A stretch of DNA of 55,754 nucleotides. It comes from Flavobacteriales bacterium. GTDB taxonomy: Bacteria > Bacteroidota > Bacteroidia > Flavobacteriales_F > PHOS-HE28. The notes below the pieces were generated by a model. The model ran no database searches. It was not told the origin of the DNA and saw only the letters and a program-made list of their open reading frames with translations. The DNA is taken from NCBI GenBank assembly GCA_031371785.1, contig JANMKC010000190.1:1-55754 (forward strand), in the 5' to 3' direction. The translations under genes were made by a program, and so were the position numbers. Positions 14,207-51,118 of the stretch are shown here, piece by piece; positions within the stretch are counted from its first letter, which is position 1, and each line of letters opens with the position of its first letter.

Positions 14207-14401
14207 CGATCCGCGGTCGAACGGGAGATCACCTCGCGCATGTCCTTCTCCAGGATACTGCGGGTCTTCACCTTGATCCTCCGAATGCTTTCCGAATGAT
14301 CGGCCACCGCGCGCTTGACCAACGGGTCGGACATCTCCCCTTCGATGCCGATCCAGTCCTTCAAGTGTTGGTTGGCCACGTCGAAGACCTCCTTGAGGTT
14401 C
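14207..14401 (-). pseudogene. 195-bp duplicate of the 3' half of the 14850-15281 gene
   Basis: Direct repeat of 14866-15060 with 9 substitutions and no indels. Confidence 0.85.
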
Positions 14402-14505
14402 TCCCTTTCCGGCGCTCGGCAATCCATTCCTCTGGTGCGCGCCGAGCGCCGCGAAGTTCTTCGGCCTCTTCCCCCTCCCCAACCAGCGGGCTTTTGTCCG
14501 CCGGA

Positions 14506-14849: not shown

Positions 14850-15281
14850 CTATCGCTTGGAAATGCGATCCGCGGTCGACCGGGAGATCACCTCGCGCAT
14901 GTCCTTCTCCAAAATGCTGCGGGTCTTCACCTTGATCCTCCGGATGCTTTCCGAATGATCGGCCACCGCGCGCCTGACCAACGGGTCGGACATCTCCCCT
15001 TCAATGCCGACCCAGTCCTTCAGGTGTTGGTTGGCCACGTCGAAGACCTCCTTGAGGTTCGCCGGGTCGAGCGAATCAAGAAATACAAGAAAGGCGGTGT
15101 TGCGATGCGTGTACGTCTCCACCAGCTTGGCGACATGCGCCCAACTTGGTGACATTCGGGGTGCTTTGTTCTTCCTCGCGATGATGGGGCGCAGGAAGGA
15201 GCCAACGACATCATCCCCCGCGAAGATCACGCGGTCGCGTACGATCCTCGATCGCTTAAGTGTGGTGTGGGGTAACGGCAT
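14850..15281 (-). CDS. hypothetical protein, putative antitoxin partner
   Basis: 143 aa from MPLPHTT; ends 8 nt before the MazF-like start; its duplicated half diverged mainly at synonymous sites, which supports this frame being coding. Confidence 0.6.
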   Translation of the reverse strand: MPLPHTTLKRSRIVRDRVIFAGDDVVGSFLRPIIARKNKAPRMSPSWAHVAKLVETYTHRNTAFLVFLDSLDPANLKEVFDVANQHLKDWVGIEGEMSDPLVRRAVADHSESIRRIKVKTRSILEKDMREVISRSTADRISKR

Positions 15282-22459: not shown

Positions 22460-22987
22460 ATGGATCCTGTAGAGAAGGTCTTCAAACTTCGGGTGGATCG
22501 TGGTTATATGGTTCCCGGAGGGCTGCTGGTTCTACTCTTGGGTTTGGGAATTTGCTACTTCGGCCTGCGGGGGGTCTTGCCCAAACCCCATTTTCGTTTC
22601 AATGACTATGTGACCATGTTTTTCTGCTTCGCGGTCGGCATCTTGTTTTGCATCGCTTACATGTTCCGTTTGTTCATCGTGAGCTTCAATGAAATCTCTT
22701 TGGATCTTGAGACCCGACGTATCGACGTGCATCCTCTTCTCGGCGGATCCTTCTCGTATCTGTCGAACGAACTGATCGGCTATAGCAACTCCACGGCGCA
22801 ATTCAGTGGAACAGGCAACAGTGGCCTTATCCTCTATTTTCCATCCGGCAAACATGTGGAGGTCTATGAATATTCGCATCAAGGGGTTGCTCGCTTCAAA
22901 GCACTATTGAAGCATCAGAAGGTCAAGTGTCTCGGCTCTGAGCTTTCGTGGTGCTTATTCCTGCGCTACAGTTTCGATCCCAAGTGA
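22460..22987 (+). CDS. cassette 1: 2-TM membrane protein with soluble beta-rich C-domain
   Basis: ATG 4 nt after the hydratase stop; paralogous to 23106-23618; stop overlaps the repeat R1 start (GTGA). Confidence 0.75.
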   Translation: MDPVEKVFKLRVDRGYMVPGGLLVLLLGLGICYFGLRGVLPKPHFRFNDYVTMFFCFAVGILFCIAYMFRLFIVSFNEISLDLETRRIDVHPLLGGSFSYLSNELIGYSNSTAQFSGTGNSGLILYFPSGKHVEVYEYSHQGVARFKALLKHQKVKCLGSELSWCLFLRYSFDPK

Positions 22988-23109
22988 GCATCCTCCGCAA
23001 ATTCGCCGACCAAACGGCCATCTATGGGTTGAGCAGCATCGTTGCGCGCTTCCTCGATCATCTGTTCGCCCCGCTCCATACGAACAAGGGTGTGAGTTCC
23101 GCGAGATGA
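22984..23109 (+). pseudogene. R1: flippase 5' remnant forming a 41-aa leader ORF
   Basis: First 72 nt match the flippase start (24644) at 67/72; translates MSILRKFADQTAIYGLSSIVARFLDHLFAPLHTNKGVSSAR*; stop overlaps ATG 23106. Confidence 0.9.
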
Positions 23110-23618
23110 GCAAGACGGCATTCACCCTTGCTCCGAACAAATTCAACCTTGGCTATTGTTGGCTCTTCTTCATTGCCCTTGCCGCCGTATCAGTCGCGCT
23201 GCTGCTGTGGCTACTACAGGGAGTGGAGGCCAAGAAGCTTCCAGCGATGCTCCTGTTGACAAGCATGATCGGGCTGCTCGCTGCCCAAGCGGGCTTGATC
23301 GTCCTGCGTCATCCATATCGACTGTCCTTGGATCACAGTACAGGGGATCTCCTTGGTACACGACCCTTTGGCGGTCCGCTGCGATTCAATGCGGCCGAGT
23401 TGCAGGGGTTCAGCAAAGCGCATGTTTGGATGGATGAGGAACATCACAAAGTGGTCATCCTTTATTTCAAGGATGGTCGGAAGATCGAGTTCTGCGAATT
23501 CATCGTTCGACCTATCGAAGCATTGTCCTTCTTCCTGAAACAGCGGAATGTGCCGCACTTCGGGGAAGAGCGTTCGTGGTTCCCGTTCAAGAAGATCAAG
23601 TACCGGTTCGACAAGTGA
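23106..23618 (+). CDS. cassette 2: 2-TM membrane protein, paralog of cassette 1
   Basis: 170 aa; shares SLD..T, GG, EL.G.S, ILYF..G, E.SW and Y.FD motifs with cassette 1. Confidence 0.75.
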   Translation: MSKTAFTLAPNKFNLGYCWLFFIALAAVSVALLLWLLQGVEAKKLPAMLLLTSMIGLLAAQAGLIVLRHPYRLSLDHSTGDLLGTRPFGGPLRFNAAELQGFSKAHVWMDEEHHKVVILYFKDGRKIEFCEFIVRPIEALSFFLKQRNVPHFGEERSWFPFKKIKYRFDK

Positions 23619-23710
23619 GCGTCCTCCGCAAACTCGCCGGGCAAACGGCCATCGACTCCCTGATCAAACCAATGTACCAACACATGGTATATTCGTGCTG
23701 CTTTCCCTGA
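23615..23710 (+). pseudogene. R2: flippase 5' remnant forming a 31-aa leader ORF
   Basis: First 39 nt match the flippase start at 38/39; MSVLRKLAGQTAIDSLIKPMYQHMVYSCCFP* stops 3 nt before the parD ATG. Confidence 0.9.
23675..23695 (+). promoter_or_regulatory. putative parDE operator and -7 promoter
   Basis: TACCA-N5-TGGTA palindrome overlapping TATATTCG, a TAnnTT(T/C)G element. Confidence 0.55.
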
Positions 23711-23713
23711 GCA

Positions 23714-23965
23714 ATGAGCAAAAACACATCCATCCTCCTGGGCGATCACTTCGAAGCCTTCGTGGCCAGGCAACTGAAGTCAGGCAAGTTCACCTCCGTA
23801 AGCGAAGTGATCCGCGCGGCCTTGCGGTTGTTCGAGGTCGAGGAATCAAAGAACGAAAGCCTCATCAAGGAGCTCAAGAAGGGCGAACGGTCGGGCTTCG
23901 TTCTTGACTTCGAACGCAACGACTTTCTGGCCGGTCTGCACCGCAAGCATGGCCGCAAGGCATGA
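23714..23965 (+). CDS. parD: ParD family antitoxin (RHH)
   Basis: KNTSILLGDHFEAFV...SGKF.SVSEVIRAALRLFE...GERSG. Confidence 0.9.
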   Translation: MSKNTSILLGDHFEAFVARQLKSGKFTSVSEVIRAALRLFEVEESKNESLIKELKKGERSGFVLDFERNDFLAGLHRKHGRKA

Positions 23966-24261
23966 AGCTGAATGTAAGGCGGGCCGCGACCGATGACCTG
24001 AAAAGCATCTGGCTGTACACGGCCGAGCATTGGTCCGTGGAACAGGCCGACCTGTACGTCAACCTGATCCTGGACGGATTCGATCATGTCCTGCGTGATC
24101 CAAGTGCTGGCAAGGACTTCGGGCATGTGCGGGAGGGCTACTTCGGCCTGAAGGTTGGATCACACCTGATCTTCTATCGGCAAGATGGAGTGGCCACCGC
24201 CATCGAGATCATCAGGGTGCTGCATGGACGCATGGACATAGAGGAGCGATTGAACCGATGA
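23962..24261 (+). CDS. parE: RelE/ParE family toxin
   Basis: AATDDLKSIWLYTAEHWS.EQAD.Y, HLIFYR, IEIIRVLHGRMD; ATGA overlap with parD. Confidence 0.9.
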   Translation: MKLNVRRAATDDLKSIWLYTAEHWSVEQADLYVNLILDGFDHVLRDPSAGKDFGHVREGYFGLKVGSHLIFYRQDGVATAIEIIRVLHGRMDIEERLNR

Positions 24262-24647
24262 GCATCCTCCGCAAACTCGCCGGGCAAACGGCCATCTATG
24301 GGATGAGCATCTCATGTTGTGTTGCGCTGTTGAGCGCTTGTTCCCTCTTCTTCGAAAAGAAGATCGAAGGCGATTGGACGGTGCATCGTCAGTCGCCACA
24401 GAGCGAAGGTGAACTGCAATTCATGGCAGGAGACTCGTTCGCCCTTGGGCCGGGACCGCACACTCCGCCGATCGATCCGCTCTCCCTTCCCTTGTCATCG
24501 CGCGGTACCTATCAGTTGTCCGGTGATTCGATCCAGTTCAACTCGGTTGGTGGGCGTATGAGCTTCAGGATCCGATGGCTCAACAAGGATCTCATCTCGT
24601 TGCGTGGTGATCGCGCCTACCTCGCACTATCGCGAAAAACCAAGTGA
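24258..24647 (+). CDS. cassette 4: lipocalin-like lipoprotein whose first ~17 codons are flippase remnant R3
   Basis: 24258-24309 match the flippase start at 49/52; continues in frame to lipobox LSAC, KKIEGDW and GTYQLSGD. Confidence 0.75.
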   Translation: MSILRKLAGQTAIYGMSISCCVALLSACSLFFEKKIEGDWTVHRQSPQSEGELQFMAGDSFALGPGPHTPPIDPLSLPLSSRGTYQLSGDSIQFNSVGGRMSFRIRWLNKDLISLRGDRAYLALSRKTK

Positions 24648-26182
24648 GCATCCTCCGCAAACTCGCCGGGCAAACGGCCATCTACGGGCTGAGCAGCATC
24701 GTTGCGCGCTTCCTCAACTACCTATTGCTGCCGCTCTACACGAGCGTGTTCCTGCCAGCGGAGTATGGCATCATCACCGCGCTCTATGCGCCGACGGCCT
24801 TCATGAACGTGGTGCTCACCTACGCGATGGAGACCACCTTCTTCCGCTATGCGAGCAGGGACCCTCATCCCCCGACCCCTTCTCCCGGGGAGAAGGGGAG
24901 CGAAGCTGTACGCGTCTACTCCACTGCTGTCTACGCGCTCACCATTTCCTCTTCGCTCTTCATGTTGCTGGGCTGCGTATTCGCGCAGGGCATCGCTGAC
25001 TTCCTCGGCTTTCCCACGCACACCAACATGGTGATCATGCTGGTGTTGATCATCGGCATCGACGCCATCACCGCTGTGCCGATGGCCCGGCTGCGGCAGC
25101 AGAACCGGCCGTGGAAGTTCGCCAGCATCAATGCGATGACCGTCGGCGTGAACATCGTCCTCAACCTCTTCGTGCTGCTCTACTGCATGCCGAAATACAA
25201 CGCAGGCCAACACAATGCGCTGATCGATGCGGTGTACGACCCGGCCCTCGGCGTGGGCTATGTCTTCTTCATCAACCTGATCAGCAGCGGCGTGAAGCTC
25301 CTGATGCTCCTACCGCAGTGGCCGCCTGTTCGGCTGCGCACCGGGCCGGACTATTTCTTCGGGATCGACAAGCAGTTGCTGCGGCCCATGCTGGTGTTCG
25401 CCACACCGCTCATGATCGCGGGCCTCGCCGGCATGGTGAACGAAACAGCGGACCGCATCCTGATGAAACACCTGCTGCCCGCGAACATCGCGGACACGCA
25501 GCTCGGCATCTACGGCGCGTGCTACAAACTGGCGATGCTGATCACCCTTTTCAGCCAGGCCTACCGGTTCGCGGCCGAGCCTTTCTTCTTCAGCCACGCC
25601 AAGGAAAAGGACAGCAAACACACCTTCGCGCACCTGATGAACGTGTTCGTGGCCGTGTGCATGGGCGCCTTCCTGCTGGTGATGCTCTTCCTCGACGTGT
25701 TCAAGCACTTCATCCCCAACCCCGCCTATTGGCCGGGCCTGCGCGTGGTGCCGATCCTGATGCTCGCCAATGTGTTCCTCGCCATCTACATCAACCAGGG
25801 CGTGTGGTACAAGCTGAGCGATCGCACGCGCGCCGGTGGAACCATCGCGCTCATCGGCGCTGCCATCACACTTGTGCTGCTCTTTTGGTGGATCCCGCTC
25901 TGGGGCTACATGGGCGCGGCCTGGGCCACGCTGGTGTGCTATGCGAGCATGGCCATCATCAGCTACGTGTGGGGGCAGAAGCACTATCCCATTCCGTACA
26001 ACCTCGTGCGCGTGTTGGGCTATATGGCCTTCGGTGTGGTGGCGTGGTGGGTGTGTGAGCAGTTGCCGTTGGAAGGAGTGATGAAGTATGCGGTGAGGGC
26101 GGTGGTGTTCTCTGGGTACTTGGGGTTGGTTTGGAGGGTGGAAGGGGCGAGAAGACCTACGAAGGATACGGCGCTGCAATAG
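24644..26182 (+). CDS. polysaccharide biosynthesis flippase (MOP/Wzx family)
   Basis: 512 aa, about 12-14 TM; LAGQTAIYGLSSI, YG....Y, METTFFRY, DRIL, GIYGACYKLA, YRFAAEPFFF. Confidence 0.9.
   Translation: MSILRKLAGQTAIYGLSSIVARFLNYLLLPLYTSVFLPAEYGIITALYAPTAFMNVVLTYAMETTFFRYASRDPHPPTPSPGEKGSEAVRVYSTAVYALTISSSLFMLLGCVFAQGIADFLGFPTHTNMVIMLVLIIGIDAITAVPMARLRQQNRPWKFASINAMTVGVNIVLNLFVLLYCMPKYNAGQHNALIDAVYDPALGVGYVFFINLISSGVKLLMLLPQWPPVRLRTGPDYFFGIDKQLLRPMLVFATPLMIAGLAGMVNETADRILMKHLLPANIADTQLGIYGACYKLAMLITLFSQAYRFAAEPFFFSHAKEKDSKHTFAHLMNVFVAVCMGAFLLVMLFLDVFKHFIPNPAYWPGLRVVPILMLANVFLAIYINQGVWYKLSDRTRAGGTIALIGAAITLVLLFWWIPLWGYMGAAWATLVCYASMAIISYVWGQKHYPIPYNLVRVLGYMAFGVVAWWVCEQLPLEGVMKYAVRAVVFSGYLGLVWRVEGARRPTKDTALQ
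24862..24900. repeat. REP-like palindrome inserted in frame in the flippase
   Basis: CCCTCATCCCCCGA then perfect 11-bp inverted repeat CCCCTTCTCCC-G-GGGAGAAGGGG; encodes PHPPTPSPGEKG. Confidence 0.75.
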
Positions 26183-26193
26183 ATGCACTTGTG

Positions 26194-27174
26194 ATGAGGA
26201 TCGTTGCCTACATCTCACTCTTGCTTATCTCCTGCTCAGGCGTTGCCCAAGAGCCCGACACACTGCGAACTGATTCGTCCATGGTCGTGACGACTGAATA
26301 TCCAGGAGGTGTTGAAGTACGGGAATTGATGAGGGCCAAGAACCTCATCTACTACCGCTTCTACTATCAAGGCTCGAAGGTCATTCACGAAACTGCTACC
26401 TACGATACACTGGGTAGGCGAATTGGAATTGGCAACGAGTTCGATGAGAAGGGACGGCTGGAGTTCACCAAGGACTATGACCGAGGCATTTGGACAGTGG
26501 TGAATGTGAAACGGCATCGATACGGCAAGCTCCAAGACCGGATGCGCGCAAAGGGAGACAGCTTGATCAAGGCGATCTATGGCTTGGAGTTCTTCAGCAA
26601 GAATGTCGTTTGGTGCATTGATGGGTCATACATGTACAATTCAGATCAGCAAGGCGATTGGGATGATGTATTCTCGAAGGAGCCGAAAAAATTCCTGCTC
26701 CGATACAACATCAAATTCGATGGCACGCATGTCTATGATGAGATGATCGAGTTCGAGCTGGACTCCGTTGGCAAGTTCATTCCGGACCCGTACGAGAGCA
26801 TCTATGGCTTCGAACAACTTCCAGACTCGGCCGACAAGGTTTTCAAACTCACTCATGCGATGGCCTTGGATATTTCGAGGCAGCATGGTCTGGTTGAAAC
26901 CGACACCACTCGCGCCGAAGCGTTCCTGAAATGGGAAGGACTTCGAACACATTCGCTCTACAACGGCCACTTCCGGTTCTATGTGACCCAACGGATAGGT
27001 TCCGATGTTGTGCGTGGTGCTAGGCCAAATCATTTTACTCGAACGAACCACTATCGCGTATGGGTCTTTAATCCCTGGTCCGGAGAGTTCATCGATGAAA
27101 AGAAGATGGACCAAGAGACCACTTGGGAAGGAGCTGGCGGGTATTCCACGGGGCTTTTCGCACCAAGCAAGTAG
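26194..27174 (+). CDS. hypothetical exported protein (accessory)
   Basis: Signal-like [19 protein letters not shown]; aromatic and acidic rich; more AT-rich than the flanks. Confidence 0.7.
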
Positions 27175-27260
27175 CTTCTCATTTGATCGAGACCTCCGCT
27201 TCGGGACACAGAACATGCATGGTGCTGTTCAGCATGAATCCTGGACGCGACCTTTGCTCC

Positions 27261-27389
27261 ATGTCCACCGTCTCAACTCTGCTCGAAACGACGACCATCC
27301 GCATCGTCAACAAGAGCAAGCACTCGCTCCCTTCCTACGCCACCGAGCATAGCGCCGGAATGGACCTGCGCGCCAACCGCTACTTTTGA
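27261..27389 (+). pseudogene. truncated dut 5' remnant
   Basis: [42 protein letters not shown]; 27298-27378 matches 28076-28156 at 76/81. Confidence 0.9.
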
Positions 27390-27395
27390 AGCACT

Positions 27396-27608
27396 ATGGC
27401 AGTGAAAGTGACGCGTAGCAAGAACGATGAGGTGGTGATCACCTTGTCCGGTGGTATCGAACCCGACGCGTTGCAGCGCGCGCTCGACTACCTCCGCTAT
27501 CTCGACCTTACAAAGGGAATGAAGGTGCCGCAAGCCGAGGTGGACAAGTTGGCCCGCGAGGTGAACGCCAGCATGGCCCGCAAACGCCGCAAGCGCGTCG
27601 CTTCGTGA
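27396..27608 (+). CDS. putative antitoxin
   Basis: 70 aa, GTGA-coupled to the PIN gene, preceded by a perfect TACTTTTG -7 element (27381-27388). Confidence 0.7.
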   Translation: MAVKVTRSKNDEVVITLSGGIEPDALQRALDYLRYLDLTKGMKVPQAEVDKLAREVNASMARKRRKRVAS

Positions 27609-28048
27609 AGCTGGTTGTAGACGCCAACATTGTGTTCAGCAGTCTGCTCCGGTCGGACAGCATTGTGGGTGATGTGTTCTTCAACTCGCACCCGCCACTT
27701 GATCTCTATGCGCCGGAACTTCTGCGGGAAGAGATCGCGGATCATCGCGCCAAATTGCTCAAGCTCAGCAAGCGGTCATCCCATACGATGCTCGAACTGG
27801 AGATGCTCTCATTGTCACGCATCACGTTCTTGAACGAGGGACTCATATCCACTGTGAACTGGGCCAAAGCGCGTGATATGATGACAGGGCTGGATGCTGA
27901 CGATGAGAACTACGTGGCGCTCGCCATTCATCTCGGTATCCCACTTTGGACCGGGGACAAGAAGTTGCTGCTCGGACTTCGCCGGAAAAAATTCGGCCTG
28001 CTTGTTTCCACCGCTGAGATCCCCGACATGATCCGCAAAGCCCAATGA
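27605..28048 (+). CDS. PIN-domain (VapC-like) toxin
   Basis: [24 protein letters not shown] and LWTGDKKL acidic motifs. Confidence 0.88.
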
Positions 28049-28503
28049 TCGACACAACAATGGACCACATCGCGGTCCGCATCGTCAACAAGAGCAAGCA
28101 CCCGCTCCCTTCCTACGCCACCGAGCACAGCGCGGGCATGGACCTGCGTGCCAACCTTGATGCGTCGATCATTCTCTCGCCGAACCAACGCGCGCTGATC
28201 CCTACGGGCCTCTTCCTCGAACTCCCCGAAGGCACCGAAGCGCAGGTGCGGCCGCGAAGCGGACTGGCTTTCAAACATGGTATCACCGTCCTCAACGCGC
28301 CCGGTACGATCGACGCGGATTATCGTGGCGAAGTGGGCGTGCTGCTCATCAATCTGGGCACCGAACCCTTCGAGGTGAAGGACGGCGAACGCATCGCGCA
28401 ATTGGTGGTGGCGAAGTACACGCGCATCACTTTGGCGGAAACTGATGACCTTCGCGCCTCGGAACGCGGTGCAGGTGGCTTCGGCCATACCGGAACGCGC
28501 TAG
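28045..28503 (+). CDS. dut: dUTP diphosphatase
   Basis: [40 protein letters not shown]. Confidence 0.97.
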
Positions 28504-28518
28504 AGCTATCAGCACGGA

Positions 28519-29526
28519 ATGAAGATCATCGTACCCATGGCGGGGATGGGCAAGCGGATGCGTCCGCATACCCACACCACCGCAAAGCCTTTGCTGCCCA
28601 TCGCGGGCAAGCCCATCGTGCAACGCCTCGTGGAGGATCTGGCCGCTGTTGCCGGTGAGCCGGTGGAAGAAGTCGCTTATGTGACAAACCCCGCCTTCGG
28701 CAAGAAGGTGGAAGAAGAACTGATCGCCATCGCGAAAGGCGTGGGTGCGAAAGGCACCATCCACTACCAGGAGGTCGCGCTCGGCACCGCTCACGCCATC
28801 CTCTGCGCGCAAAGCGCATTGAACGGTCGCGTGATCGTCGCTTTCGCTGACACGCTCTTCCGCGCGCAATTGAAATTGGACAAGGACTGCGATGGTGTGA
28901 TCTGGGTGAACAAGGTGGAAGACCCCAAGCCCTTCGGCGTGGTGAAGCTCGACGACAAGGGTATCATCACAGAGTTCGTGGAGAAGCCACAGACCTTCGT
29001 GAGCGACCTCGCGATCATCGGCATCTACTACTTCGCCGATGGCGAATACCTCCGCAAGGAAATGCAGTTCTTGATCGACAACGACATCAAGGACAAGGGC
29101 GAGTACCAACTCACCAACGCGATGGAGAACATGAAGCGCAAAGGCGCGCGCTTCAAGGCCGGCAGCGTGGACGTATGGATGGACTGCGGGAACAAGAACG
29201 CGATGGTGGACACGAACACGAAAGTGCTCGGCTTCCTCAAGGGCGACAAGACGTTGGTCAGCGTGAAAGTGAAAAGCGAGAACAGCGTGATCATTCCTCC
29301 TTGCTTCATCGGCGATGATGTGACGATCACCAACAGCATCATCGGGCCGAACGTGAGTATTGAAAAGGGCGCGAACATCAGCGGCAGTGTTGTGAAGAAT
29401 TCGATCCTGCGCGGCAATACGCGTGTACAGGACTGCGTGATGGACAACAGCATGATCGGTGAGCGCGCCGTGGTAACCGGTCACGCATTGGACCTGAGCA
29501 TGAGCGACGACAGCACGATCGGCTGA
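28519..29526 (+). CDS. sugar-phosphate nucleotidyltransferase
   Basis: PMAGMGKRMRPHT..AKPLLPIAGKP, FVEKP, WMDCG; C-terminal left-handed beta-helix repeats. Confidence 0.9.
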   Translation: MKIIVPMAGMGKRMRPHTHTTAKPLLPIAGKPIVQRLVEDLAAVAGEPVEEVAYVTNPAFGKKVEEELIAIAKGVGAKGTIHYQEVALGTAHAILCAQSALNGRVIVAFADTLFRAQLKLDKDCDGVIWVNKVEDPKPFGVVKLDDKGIITEFVEKPQTFVSDLAIIGIYYFADGEYLRKEMQFLIDNDIKDKGEYQLTNAMENMKRKGARFKAGSVDVWMDCGNKNAMVDTNTKVLGFLKGDKTLVSVKVKSENSVIIPPCFIGDDVTITNSIIGPNVSIEKGANISGSVVKNSILRGNTRVQDCVMDNSMIGERAVVTGHALDLSMSDDSTIG

Positions 29527-49945: not shown

Positions 49946-51118
49946 ATGCGCGCGCTCCGCTTCTTTCTTGGCTTCCTGCTCGTGCTCGTTCCAGAGATCC
50001 TGCGCGTCTTTTGGATCATGCCCTTCCCCGGCAGCCAGCAGGACCTGCCGACGGACAATGCGCAGGTGGATCAAGCGTACTTCCTGCACAACAACATCTG
50101 GTGGATCCGCCTCATCGGTCTTGCGCTGATGATCGGACCATTCGTCTACTACATGCGCTATGGCGGCGCGTGGGAACGGATCGGCGTGTTGCTGCCTTCC
50201 GCTCTCTGCGCGCTCGTCTTCTATGCGTTCAATTTCAAGTTCATGGCGGACAAGCTGTTCATTCCGCCGAAGGAAAAATTGATGCAGGTGCCGGTAGTGA
50301 ACGACAGCACGGCGAACAGCCTGGTCATCGGAGTGGAGATCAATGGCGACGCACGCGCGTACCCCATCGAGATCATCGGATACCATCATCAAGTACTCGA
50401 TACCATCGGTGGCGAACCCGTGCTGGTGACCTATTGCACCGTGTGCAGAACGGGGCGAGCGTTCAGTCCGAAGGTGAACGGTGCGCAAGAAACTTTCCGG
50501 CTCGTAGGCATGGACCACTACAACGCGTTGTTCGAGGACTCGCGCACGAAAAGCTGGTGGCGGCAGGTGAACGGTGAGTGCATCGAAGGGCCGCTGAAAG
50601 GGCAACATCTCATCGAAGTGCCATCGCAACAAATGACCCTGAAGGAGTGGGCTGCGGAACATCCCAAGACACTGGTGCTACAACCTGACCCGCTGTTCAG
50701 CAAGCAATACACCGGCCTCAAGGGCTATGATGACGGTACGATCGAGGGCTCCCTTGAAGCGCGCGATACAGCGAGCTGGCAACCGAAGAGCTGGGTGGTG
50801 GGCATGGTACACAACGGCGTGGCGCGGGCGTATGATTGGAATGATCTGCTCGATGCTGGCGTGATCTCGGATACGCTCGGAGGACAGCGGATAGAGCTGA
50901 CGCTTGGGCACAACTCTGCCGACTTCGTAGCAACGCGAGTGGCGGTGGATACCTCATCGGACAGGATCGCCTACTCCAATATGATTCTGGTCGGGACGGT
51001 CGACACGATCGTCACTTCCATACAGGAAACCTCGTTCTCAATTCCCGCCTACCAGGAATTCTGGCATAGCTGGCGCACCTTCCACCCGAACACCACGCGG
51101 TATGTGCCGAAGCGTTGA
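49946..51118 (+). CDS. DUF3179 domain membrane protein
   Basis: ARAYP, TYCTVCRTG, D..T.SWWRQ..G..I.GPLKG, FWHSW..FHP.T. Confidence 0.82.
   Translation: MRALRFFLGFLLVLVPEILRVFWIMPFPGSQQDLPTDNAQVDQAYFLHNNIWWIRLIGLALMIGPFVYYMRYGGAWERIGVLLPSALCALVFYAFNFKFMADKLFIPPKEKLMQVPVVNDSTANSLVIGVEINGDARAYPIEIIGYHHQVLDTIGGEPVLVTYCTVCRTGRAFSPKVNGAQETFRLVGMDHYNALFEDSRTKSWWRQVNGECIEGPLKGQHLIEVPSQQMTLKEWAAEHPKTLVLQPDPLFSKQYTGLKGYDDGTIEGSLEARDTASWQPKSWVVGMVHNGVARAYDWNDLLDAGVISDTLGGQRIELTLGHNSADFVATRVAVDTSSDRIAYSNMILVGTVDTIVTSIQETSFSIPAYQEFWHSWRTFHPNTTRYVPKR

Follow-up and report, generated by a model that had tools for sequence, protein, structure and literature searches.

A putative PIN_2 toxin-antitoxin cassette between two diverged starts of dut in a Flavobacteriales genome

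The arrangement of the dUTPase gene dut was examined in a 55,754-base stretch of DNA from a Flavobacteriales bacterium (the window), which is the entire contig C335 of the metagenome genome G000 (501 contigs, 92% complete). A 697-bp insert, holding a small antitoxin gene and a PIN_2 toxin gene, lies here between two starts of dut: a stranded start upstream, and downstream the start of the intact gene, which is present as a single copy in G000. The two starts share an 81-nt repeat. As read from the sequence, the repeat copies are diverged functional alleles rather than products of duplication in place, the stranded start is of the native type and in the native position, and the working dut is a chimera of two N-terminal/body lineages. 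The locus may have arisen by recombination between two alleles that had diverged within one species complex, with the cassette as the incoming part. The comparison set comprised 131 genomes of the genus (G000 and 130 others), and 180 dUTPase proteins were used to compare starts and bodies. The features of the dut/cassette region are as follows.

27249 to 27256, plus strand: GACCTTTG, the native −7-like box of dut, 4 nt before the remnant ATG
27261 to 27389, plus strand: stranded dut start (the remnant), a 42-codon open reading frame (ORF) with native-type codons 1 to 39, then RYF and a stop (27387 to 27389)
27298 to 27378, plus strand: repeat copy 1 (old allele), from the repeat comparison
27378 to 27379, no strand: illegitimate joint, dut nucleotide 118 joined to the left end of the cassette
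27381 to 27388, plus strand: TACTTTTG, −7-like box belonging to the cassette, 7 nt upstream of the antitoxin ATG
27396 to 27608, plus strand: putative antitoxin, 70 aa, no known family, paired with the PIN_2 gene
27605 to 28048, plus strand: PIN_2 toxin, 147 aa (PF10130, E 2.6e-25)
28045 to 28503, plus strand: intact dut (PF00692), chimeric, with a foreign-type start and a native-type body
28076 to 28156, plus strand: repeat copy 2 (allele in use), from the repeat comparison

The repeat search returned a single 81-nt direct repeat (27298 to 27378 and 28076 to 28156; 94% identical, spacing 778), and the next-longest direct repeat family within 26500 to 29500 was 25 nt long with 72% identity. 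The copies share exact runs of 26 and 25 nt and differ at five positions (27324/28102, 27350/28128, 27356/28134, 27359/28137, and 27371/28149). In the dut frame, the corresponding codons are TCG/CCG (Ser/Pro), CAT/CAC, GCC/GCG, GGA/GGC, and CGC/CGT, which confirms the count in the initial annotation of four synonymous changes and one Ser/Pro change. Random change would be expected to be synonymous in 23 to 28% of cases, and the probability of at least four of five is 0.012 to 0.025. The remnant is undecayed, with no stop, no indel, and one non-synonymous change, and the sequences 5' of the two copies are unrelated, as had been noted. The earlier proposal that both copies were once functional alleles was supported by the synonymous bias, by the conserved GACCTTTG box, and by intact dut genes with remnant-type starts in relatives (below). 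Its companion, that the repeat is not a target-site duplication, also held, given the length of 81 nt with five differences, the unrelated upstream sequences, and the lack of a transposase in the insert; the ends of the insert carry no terminal inverted repeats either. Rare recombination between the copies could delete the cassette and restore dut with its old start. No such cassette-free joint was listed in the contigs of four sequencing runs, an absence that is uninformative because contigs drop rare forms.

Next, the stranded start was compared with dut of relatives. An ACCTTTG box ends 4 to 5 nt before the dut ATG in G146, G029, G003, G139, and G073b, and the remnant keeps the same box, separated from its ATG by 4 nt. 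In flavobacteria, the −7 box of sigma-A is TAnnTTTG, placed at −12 to −5 (PMC9723704). By likeness to this consensus GACCTTTG may be a promoter box, and such a placement would put the transcript start at or next to the ATG. Intact genes starting exactly MSTVSTLLE had been predicted in relatives; none was found, and the 13-residue start of the remnant had no exact match among the dUTPases compared. Intact dut genes with a remnant-type N-terminus do occur, as had also been proposed: P0001 (MNDVSTPLDLTTI) and P0002 (MNEVSTPLDLTTI) each match the remnant at 8 of 13 residues, and similar starts (MNKVSTPLDLTR(I/V)) are present in G146 and G029. Run X3 adds a low-depth contig with a start of this type, which reads MNEVSTTLDL before 27291. 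The species nearest to G000 by downstream genes are G003, G029, and G146, with identities in the TPR gene of 80%, 75%, and ∼70%, respectively, versus 51 to 54% for cassette-bearing species. By these comparisons, the remnant is a native-type start that still occupies the native position.

The body of the working dut (after ...RAN) is 0.99 identical to that of P0002, whose start resembles the remnant as described above and matches the new start at 1.5 of 11 residues. The nearest starts to the new 11-residue start are MIVTTSEGLAV and its kin (6 of 11), and their bodies are 0.81 to 0.86 identical. From codon 18 onward, the G000 dut shows no differences from that of cassette-free P0002 and four from the cassette-linked form in run X4 described below (K18H, S29N, I42L, and P53S), which fits a native body behind an imported start. 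The predicted discordance between the 5' and 3' parts of dut is therefore present at the protein level, and the working gene reads as a chimera. A search with shorter dut fragments found a MIDTT start in none of the 6 proteins read out of 120 listed. Two side observations concern dut in relatives. The dut body of P0002 is 0.99 identical and its presumed neighbor 92.2% identical (P0193), and that of P0001 is 0.86 identical and its presumed neighbor 94.8% (P0195), both neighbors being assigned by equal contig sizes only; dut and the next gene thus disagree among close relatives. On one contig of G007 (C1, 38795 to 43486), dut and the beginning of the next gene are present twice, in inverted orientation and ∼3 kb apart.

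The cassette is linked to dut in 4 of the 131 genus genomes. In G032, G086, and G073 (contig 6), the order antitoxin-PIN-dut occurs without the remnant (antitoxin 83% and toxin 65 to 78% identical), and no second dut fragment was found in the 1.3 to 1.5 kb, nor in the 2.5 to 6.5 kb, fetched upstream. The other 26 fetched PIN_2 loci have no dut nearby. In G086, the toxin stop likewise overlaps the dut ATG. The sequence upstream of the cassette in G086 and G073a equals the sequence before native dut in G073b as far as ...cgACCT and then continues as GATCTACTTTTG and onward to the ATG of the antitoxin (ACCT/GATCTACTTTTG), which places the cassette inside the native box in these two. Homology of the G000 cassette to the G032, G073a, and G086 copies starts at GC-TACTTTTG, left of which stands CCTGATC in those three and GCCAACC in G000. 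A microhomology of the recipient sequence CCTTGATG with the donor-like CCTGATC was considered and rejected, as the recombinant lacks TGAT.

A contig of run X4, from an unrelated study, carries a cassette ∼91% identical to that of G000, with other sequence upstream of 27393 and no remnant. No difference is listed over 28036 to 28095, the segment with the ATGA overlap and the new dut start codons, in a difference list inferred to be complete for 27755 to 28201 (77 table rows are not shown); the same dut start is thus linked to the cassette there. The claim that the new start came with the cassette from another genome therefore stands in its first half, the linkage of cassette and start, while the direction of transfer is weighed below. 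The X4 toxin has seven substitutions in 27755 to 28201, all seven of which also occur in P0191, a toxin differing from that of G000 at 9 of 147 residues (94% identical). As a side observation, the divergence from X4 is a mosaic (16.7% over 27755 to 27892, 2.8% over 27893 to 28035, 0% over 28036 to 28095, and 12.3% over 28096 to 28201), with a near-identical block of ∼200 nt that covers the 3' third of the toxin gene and the dut start and has its breakpoints in the conserved DxDD and VRIVNK stretches. One X4 contig departs from dut at 28289 into unrelated sequence, at a point where the conserved dut core tangles the assembly graph. A metagenome scan with the dut protein returned mostly generic dUTPases (best locus, 77% identical), and the antitoxin, toxin, or orphan gene appeared in 0 of 80 loci.

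The initial annotation placed a promoter element of the cassette 2 nt past the break. The box TACTTTTG is so placed, and each of the four cassette copies has the same letters there although the flanks have diverged; as a bare motif, TAnnTTTG is at chance level (5 matches in the window versus 7.7 expected), and support for the box comes from conservation in the four copies, not from motif enrichment. The antitoxin stop and toxin start overlap as GTGA (27605 to 27608). The reported overlap of the toxin stop (TGA, 28046 to 28048) with the dut ATG (28045 to 28047) was confirmed as ATGA at 28045 to 28048. No TTTG-type box stands ahead of the new dut ATG, so transcription and translation of dut probably depend on the putative toxin-antitoxin operon, in which it would be the third gene. 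It would then be driven by the cassette box and, in G000, perhaps also by the stranded native promoter 125 nt upstream. A sigma-70 promoter scan found 0 sites, as expected for the phylum, and terminator-like sites numbered 5 versus 2.9 expected, which is uninformative.

The two cassette genes were then characterized. The toxin matches PF10130 (PIN_2) over residues 4 to 127 with 89.6 bits, against a cut-off of 22.4, and the antitoxin has no family in Pfam, NCBIfam, or PADLOC. PIN_2 homologues occur in 36 of the 131 genus genomes, and an antitoxin homologue adjoins the PIN_2 gene in 28 of 30 fetched loci, the window's included (27 of 29 others). Among the 17 full-length pairs aligned, again counting that of the window, toxin residues D6, E43, D97, D100, and D118 are invariant; we take these acidic residues to be the PIN catalytic quartet, and the active site is intact. 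A predicted antitoxin-toxin complex scored 0.87, versus 0.00 for the best of three controls. Of 157 solved complexes, 116 attained this mark, as did 2 of 215 mismatched pairs; because solved PIN-antitoxin complexes exist, part of this score may reflect likeness. The runs agreed in at least 95% of contacts with a partner pLDDT of at least 83, and antitoxin residues 28 to 64 were predicted to lie over toxin residues 6 to 8, 43 to 44, 97 to 102, and 118. The model supports binding of the toxin by the antitoxin, and by sequence the 70-aa gene and the PIN_2 gene make up a putative toxin-antitoxin pair. VapBC-type pairs are similar in their PIN-fold toxin with an acidic quartet, their small upstream antitoxin with overlapping stop and start, and the C-terminal half of the antitoxin over the active site (here predicted). 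The present toxin, however, is PIN_2 and not of the VapC PIN family (PF01850, 18.0 bits versus a cut-off of 23.6), and its antitoxin matches no DNA-binding family, which places the pair outside VapBC. Three further PIN_2 loci in G000 (C80, C318, and C103) have 35 to 54% identity; one of them contains an in-frame TAG, and another is broken into two pieces.

The neighboring genes are as follows.

24644 to 26182, plus strand: polysaccharide flippase-like gene (PF01943, E 1.2e-11), left core flank of the variable spacer
26194 to 27174, plus strand: orphan gene, 326 aa (347 aa from TTG at 26131), lipoprotein-like N-terminus, accessory cargo of the spacer
28519 to 29526, plus strand: nucleotidyltransferase gene (PF00483), right core flank

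The usual order in the genus is flippase, variable spacer, dut, nucleotidyltransferase, and TPR gene. The flippase-like gene is upstream of dut in those genus loci that extend far enough, and the nucleotidyltransferase gene follows dut in 27 of 29 other-species loci; in the remaining two, the contig ends soon after dut. The orphan gene has no family in Pfam, NCBIfam, or PADLOC, is a singleton cluster at 90% identity among 15 billion proteins, and has just three weak matches (26 to 27% identity) in the 130 other genus genomes. Its guanine-plus-cytosine (GC) content is 47 to 52%, versus 58 to 62% in the flanks. Near the new dut start, a 17-nt inverted repeat (28044 to 28060 and 28157 to 28173; 88% complementary) brackets the start and repeat copy 2, and one arm begins directly after the end of that copy; as there are five such pairs in 3 kb, this one may be due to chance.

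In other species, the same spacer holds further genes of this kind. A divergent HicA/HicB pair (PF07927, E 1.6e-12; PF15919, E 5.7e-8) lies just upstream of the cassette and dut in G086 (L158, 5647 to 6061), and HicB-like ORFs of the same sequence are found at the equivalent place in G029, G073a, and G073b (L155, L156, and L157), the Pfam scan of these genes having covered the G086 pair and the G029 HicB only. The flippase-dut spacer thus appears to collect toxin-antitoxin genes in several species. G073 contigs 6 and 8 (L156 and L157) hold two complete flippase-dut-nucleotidyltransferase-TPR loci, one with and one without the cassette, and the antitoxin of the cassette-bearing locus is identical to that of G086. 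A genuine duplication could explain this, as could the presence of another organism in the bin (contamination, 3%).

The reading that we favor, with a probability of about 0.5, is that a cassette from a diverged allele entered a native locus. One parent would have carried the flippase, the orphan gene, the native promoter, and dut with an M(N/S)xVST-type start. The other would have carried an antitoxin/PIN_2 operon directly before dut, where the stop codon of the toxin overlapped a dut start of another type. The incoming DNA would have comprised the cassette and the first ∼110 or more nucleotides of the donor dut and would have met a genome of the native arrangement; the donor dut part would recombine in register with the resident dut, and the other donor end would be joined illegitimately to resident dut nucleotide 118 (27378/27379). 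This could proceed by linear homology-facilitated illegitimate recombination (HFIR), or the fragment could be end-joined into a circle of ∼778 bp and taken up by one RecA-type crossover in the 81-nt homology. Either way, the old promoter and 39 codons would be left stranded upstream, followed by the cassette and then by a working, chimeric dut. Both pathways are documented, and a circle with a single crossover duplicates the homologous segment (PMC3240628). The structure agrees with this scheme in that the right side of the insert runs seamlessly into intact dut, and the left joint has no homology to the sequence upstream of the cassette in the three other species or in X4. The remnant and the downstream flank are both of the cassette-free clade, which favors the cassette as the incoming part. 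A parallel may also be drawn with displacement arrays of type VI secretion system (T6SS) and Rhs genes (PMC5361080).

Several observations weigh against this reading. The joint at 27378/27379 shows ∼1 nt of microhomology with cassette homologues standing in for the parent sequences, and HFIR joints are described with microhomology of 3 to 10 bp (PMC3240628). Linear HFIR, moreover, does not most commonly place its joint within the stretch that is homologous to the incoming DNA. Arrival of the orphan gene and the old start from the left would give the same structure. The divergence between G000 and X4 is alike in the cassette (8.6 to 16.7%) and the downstream gene (9.0%), as would be expected also if the cassette had been inherited vertically. 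The cassette seems to be present in a relative whose flippase is 94% identical (P0197 and P0188, placed on one 3870-nt contig from their equal sizes only). Finally, the orphan gene is itself a compositionally foreign, unsampled piece.

The reverse course is possible, although we consider it somewhat less probable. Here, the cassette-dut operon would be the resident. DNA of a cassette-free relative, with its homologous anchor within the flippase or to its left, would have brought in the orphan gene, the native promoter, and dut nucleotides 1 to 118, and its other end would have been joined illegitimately 2 nt before the cassette box. Such a cassette-dut arrangement is seen in the X4 form and apparently in the relative with the 3870-nt contig, on which the 94% identical flippase and a 97% identical antitoxin seemingly lie together. 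The low GC content of the orphan gene, its singleton cluster, and its lack of close homologues in the 130 genus genomes would be in keeping with such an arrival, as would the similar X4 divergence across cassette and downstream gene and the undecayed state of the remnant. A full double crossover would, in addition, delete the toxin-antitoxin pair and so presumably be selected against by addiction. On the other side, the dut body is nearer to that of cassette-free P0002 than to the cassette-linked X4 form, with its four changes in codons 18 to 53, and the remnant has the box and start type of the same clade in which the TPR gene places the downstream flank.

The whole G000 genome was also compared with itself for same-strand repeats of 60 to 300 nt, at least 86% identical and 300 to 3500 nt apart. 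This yielded 46 pairs, a count from G000 alone. Listed for follow-up were 26 pairs on 24 contigs (60 to 240 nt, 86 to 97% identical), flanking small inserts (for example, on C31, C48, C52, C247, C251, C287, C353, C429, and C487); left out were pairs on C32, C49, C117, C124, C179, C198, C217, C301, C320, C427, and C489. Differences were assessed with a frame-free test of three-base periodicity, longest-ORF frames having picked the wrong strand even for dut in this GC-rich genome. In the 19 indel-free pairs, 98 of 158 differences fell in the commonest codon phase of the respective pair versus 79.3 ± 3.7 expected (P ∼5e-5). This periodicity indicates that the pairs, as a class, are diverged coding alleles and that such scars are recurrent in G000.

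Cargo was scanned at 23 of the 26 loci. Toxin families scored above the Pfam cut-off in five (PIN, HicA, AbiEii twice, and PIN_2), one locus has DUF5615, and two were just under the cut-off (PIN, 23.0 versus 23.6; PemK, 22.5 versus 23.1). Other cargo included Fic, GIY-YIG, AAA/STAND-like ATPases, and a 23S rRNA IVP protein. At C48 (49967 to 51271; L167, 330 to 1634), the 3' end of infB is duplicated (139 nt, 96% identical, spacing 1166) around a 1.0-kb insert with a GGACT-domain ORF and a 157-aa ORF, and an orphan IF-2 end lies at 49972 to 50106. Two further places in the window were noted. The flippase start occurs three times (22980 to 24743): a first copy at ∼22984, a second at 24258 that heads a 129-aa ORF, and the real start at 24644. 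The interval between the first and second copies holds a 170-aa membrane-like ORF and ParD/ParE genes (PF03693, E 8.8e-25; PF05016, E 4.9e-16), with the stop of ParE overlapping the second ATG (ATGA). As at dut, orphaned gene starts are thus arrayed here. Elsewhere, a 198-nt direct repeat (14207 to 14404 and 14866 to 15063; 95% identical, spacing 659) flanks a minus-strand 111-aa ORF with a PemK/MazF-like match of 22.5 bits, under the cut-off of 23.1.

The frequency of such inserts, one of them at infB, could also suggest a site-specific mini-element that carries a replacement dut start and is moved by a recombinase encoded elsewhere. Its layout would resemble that of integrative elements which rebuild their target gene, and the exact runs of 26 and 25 nt in the repeat copies could be read in the same way. 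We consider this quite unlikely: the insert holds the antitoxin and toxin genes only, with no recombinase or transposase in it and no recombinase beside it, and the cassettes of G032, G073a, G086, and X4 have different left borders and no remnant. Moreover, the other repeat pairs of G000 involve many different genes, for which one recombinase with one target site would be insufficient.

An assembly artefact, with two co-occurring strains stitched together, is very improbable. G000 is a bin of 501 metagenome contigs, and run X3 holds a related strain with another dut start (MNEVSTTLDL...), circumstances in which a chimera could arise. However, no word is common to both sides of 27378/27379, which leaves a de Bruijn graph without a path to invent the joint, and Logan's separate assembly recovered the joint without mismatch in two runs. 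A 3429-nt Logan contig of run X1 covers 26600 to 28900 with 0 differences, and Logan contigs of run X2 cover 26600 to 27866 and 27844 to 28233 with 0 differences each; X1 and X2 are possibly the source samples of G000, and this is thus a second assembly, not a second sample. The structure, spanned mismatch-free by contigs of two runs, is therefore not a binning chimera. A course in which the dut 5' region was duplicated in place, one copy then decayed, and the cassette was inserted afterwards is scarcely credible: tandem duplication does yield a direct repeat as its primary product, but here the sequences upstream of the copies are unrelated, four of five differences are synonymous, and the new start is from a different N-terminal family.

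If the cassette did come in, the locus would be a clean natural example of toxin-antitoxin entry without mobility genes in which both parental alleles are still readable. In several species of the genus, such a pair has taken over the start codon of a housekeeping gene and the position of its promoter. A rather doubtful extension is that small selfish cassettes may move without a recombinase as a unit of cassette plus adjoining gene end, out as a circle and in by a single crossover. Circles would then form via the diverged flanking repeats and re-enter a naive genome through that gene end, and deletion of a dut-linked cassette would be doubly costly, through toxin release and through lost expression of an essential gene. 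Should the frequency of such scars exceed that in related complete genomes, it would point to cassette gain without a recombinase, a process that could be measured directly in population metagenomes.

The proposed course has precedents. The icd gene of E. coli is a target of e14 and phage 21. These prophages have their own integrase, use a defined attachment site at the 3' end, and supply a substitute gene end upon integration. As at dut, the gene stays intact by way of an imported, mostly synonymously diverged end, and the original end is orphaned beyond the insert; the dut insert, in contrast, is 697 bp long, has no recombinase, and lies at a 5' end. In HFIR or single crossover of a circle (PMC3240628), one end is joined by homology and the other illegitimately, and ∼1 kb of foreign DNA is trapped beside the anchor without a dedicated recombinase. 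The dut locus differs as a natural product deduced from sequence, and with a net duplication of the 81-nt anchor instead of the deletion that is usual in that account. With T6SS effector-immunity modules of Vibrio cholerae and orphan Rhs ends, an incoming module anchored on a conserved gene part pushes the resident variable end aside and leaves it orphaned, and repeated events build arrays (PMC5361080); the two orphan flippase starts upstream of the real one are similar. There, variable 3' toxin ends with immunity genes are displaced, whereas here the displaced parts are the 5' ends of housekeeping genes, with promoter and start codon, and the cargo is an unrelated toxin-antitoxin pair. Chromosomal toxin-antitoxin islets (PMC13617665) are likewise compact, free of mobile-element genes, located between core genes, and patchy, and they spread by homologous recombination at core flanks; at dut, one flank lacks homology, hence the scar, and the cassette replaces the promoter position and abuts the next start codon. 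The mechanism belongs to known classes, namely, HFIR/single-crossover scars, displacement arrays, and toxin-antitoxin islets. What is new is the action on the 5' end of a housekeeping gene, where the cassette takes over both promoter and start.

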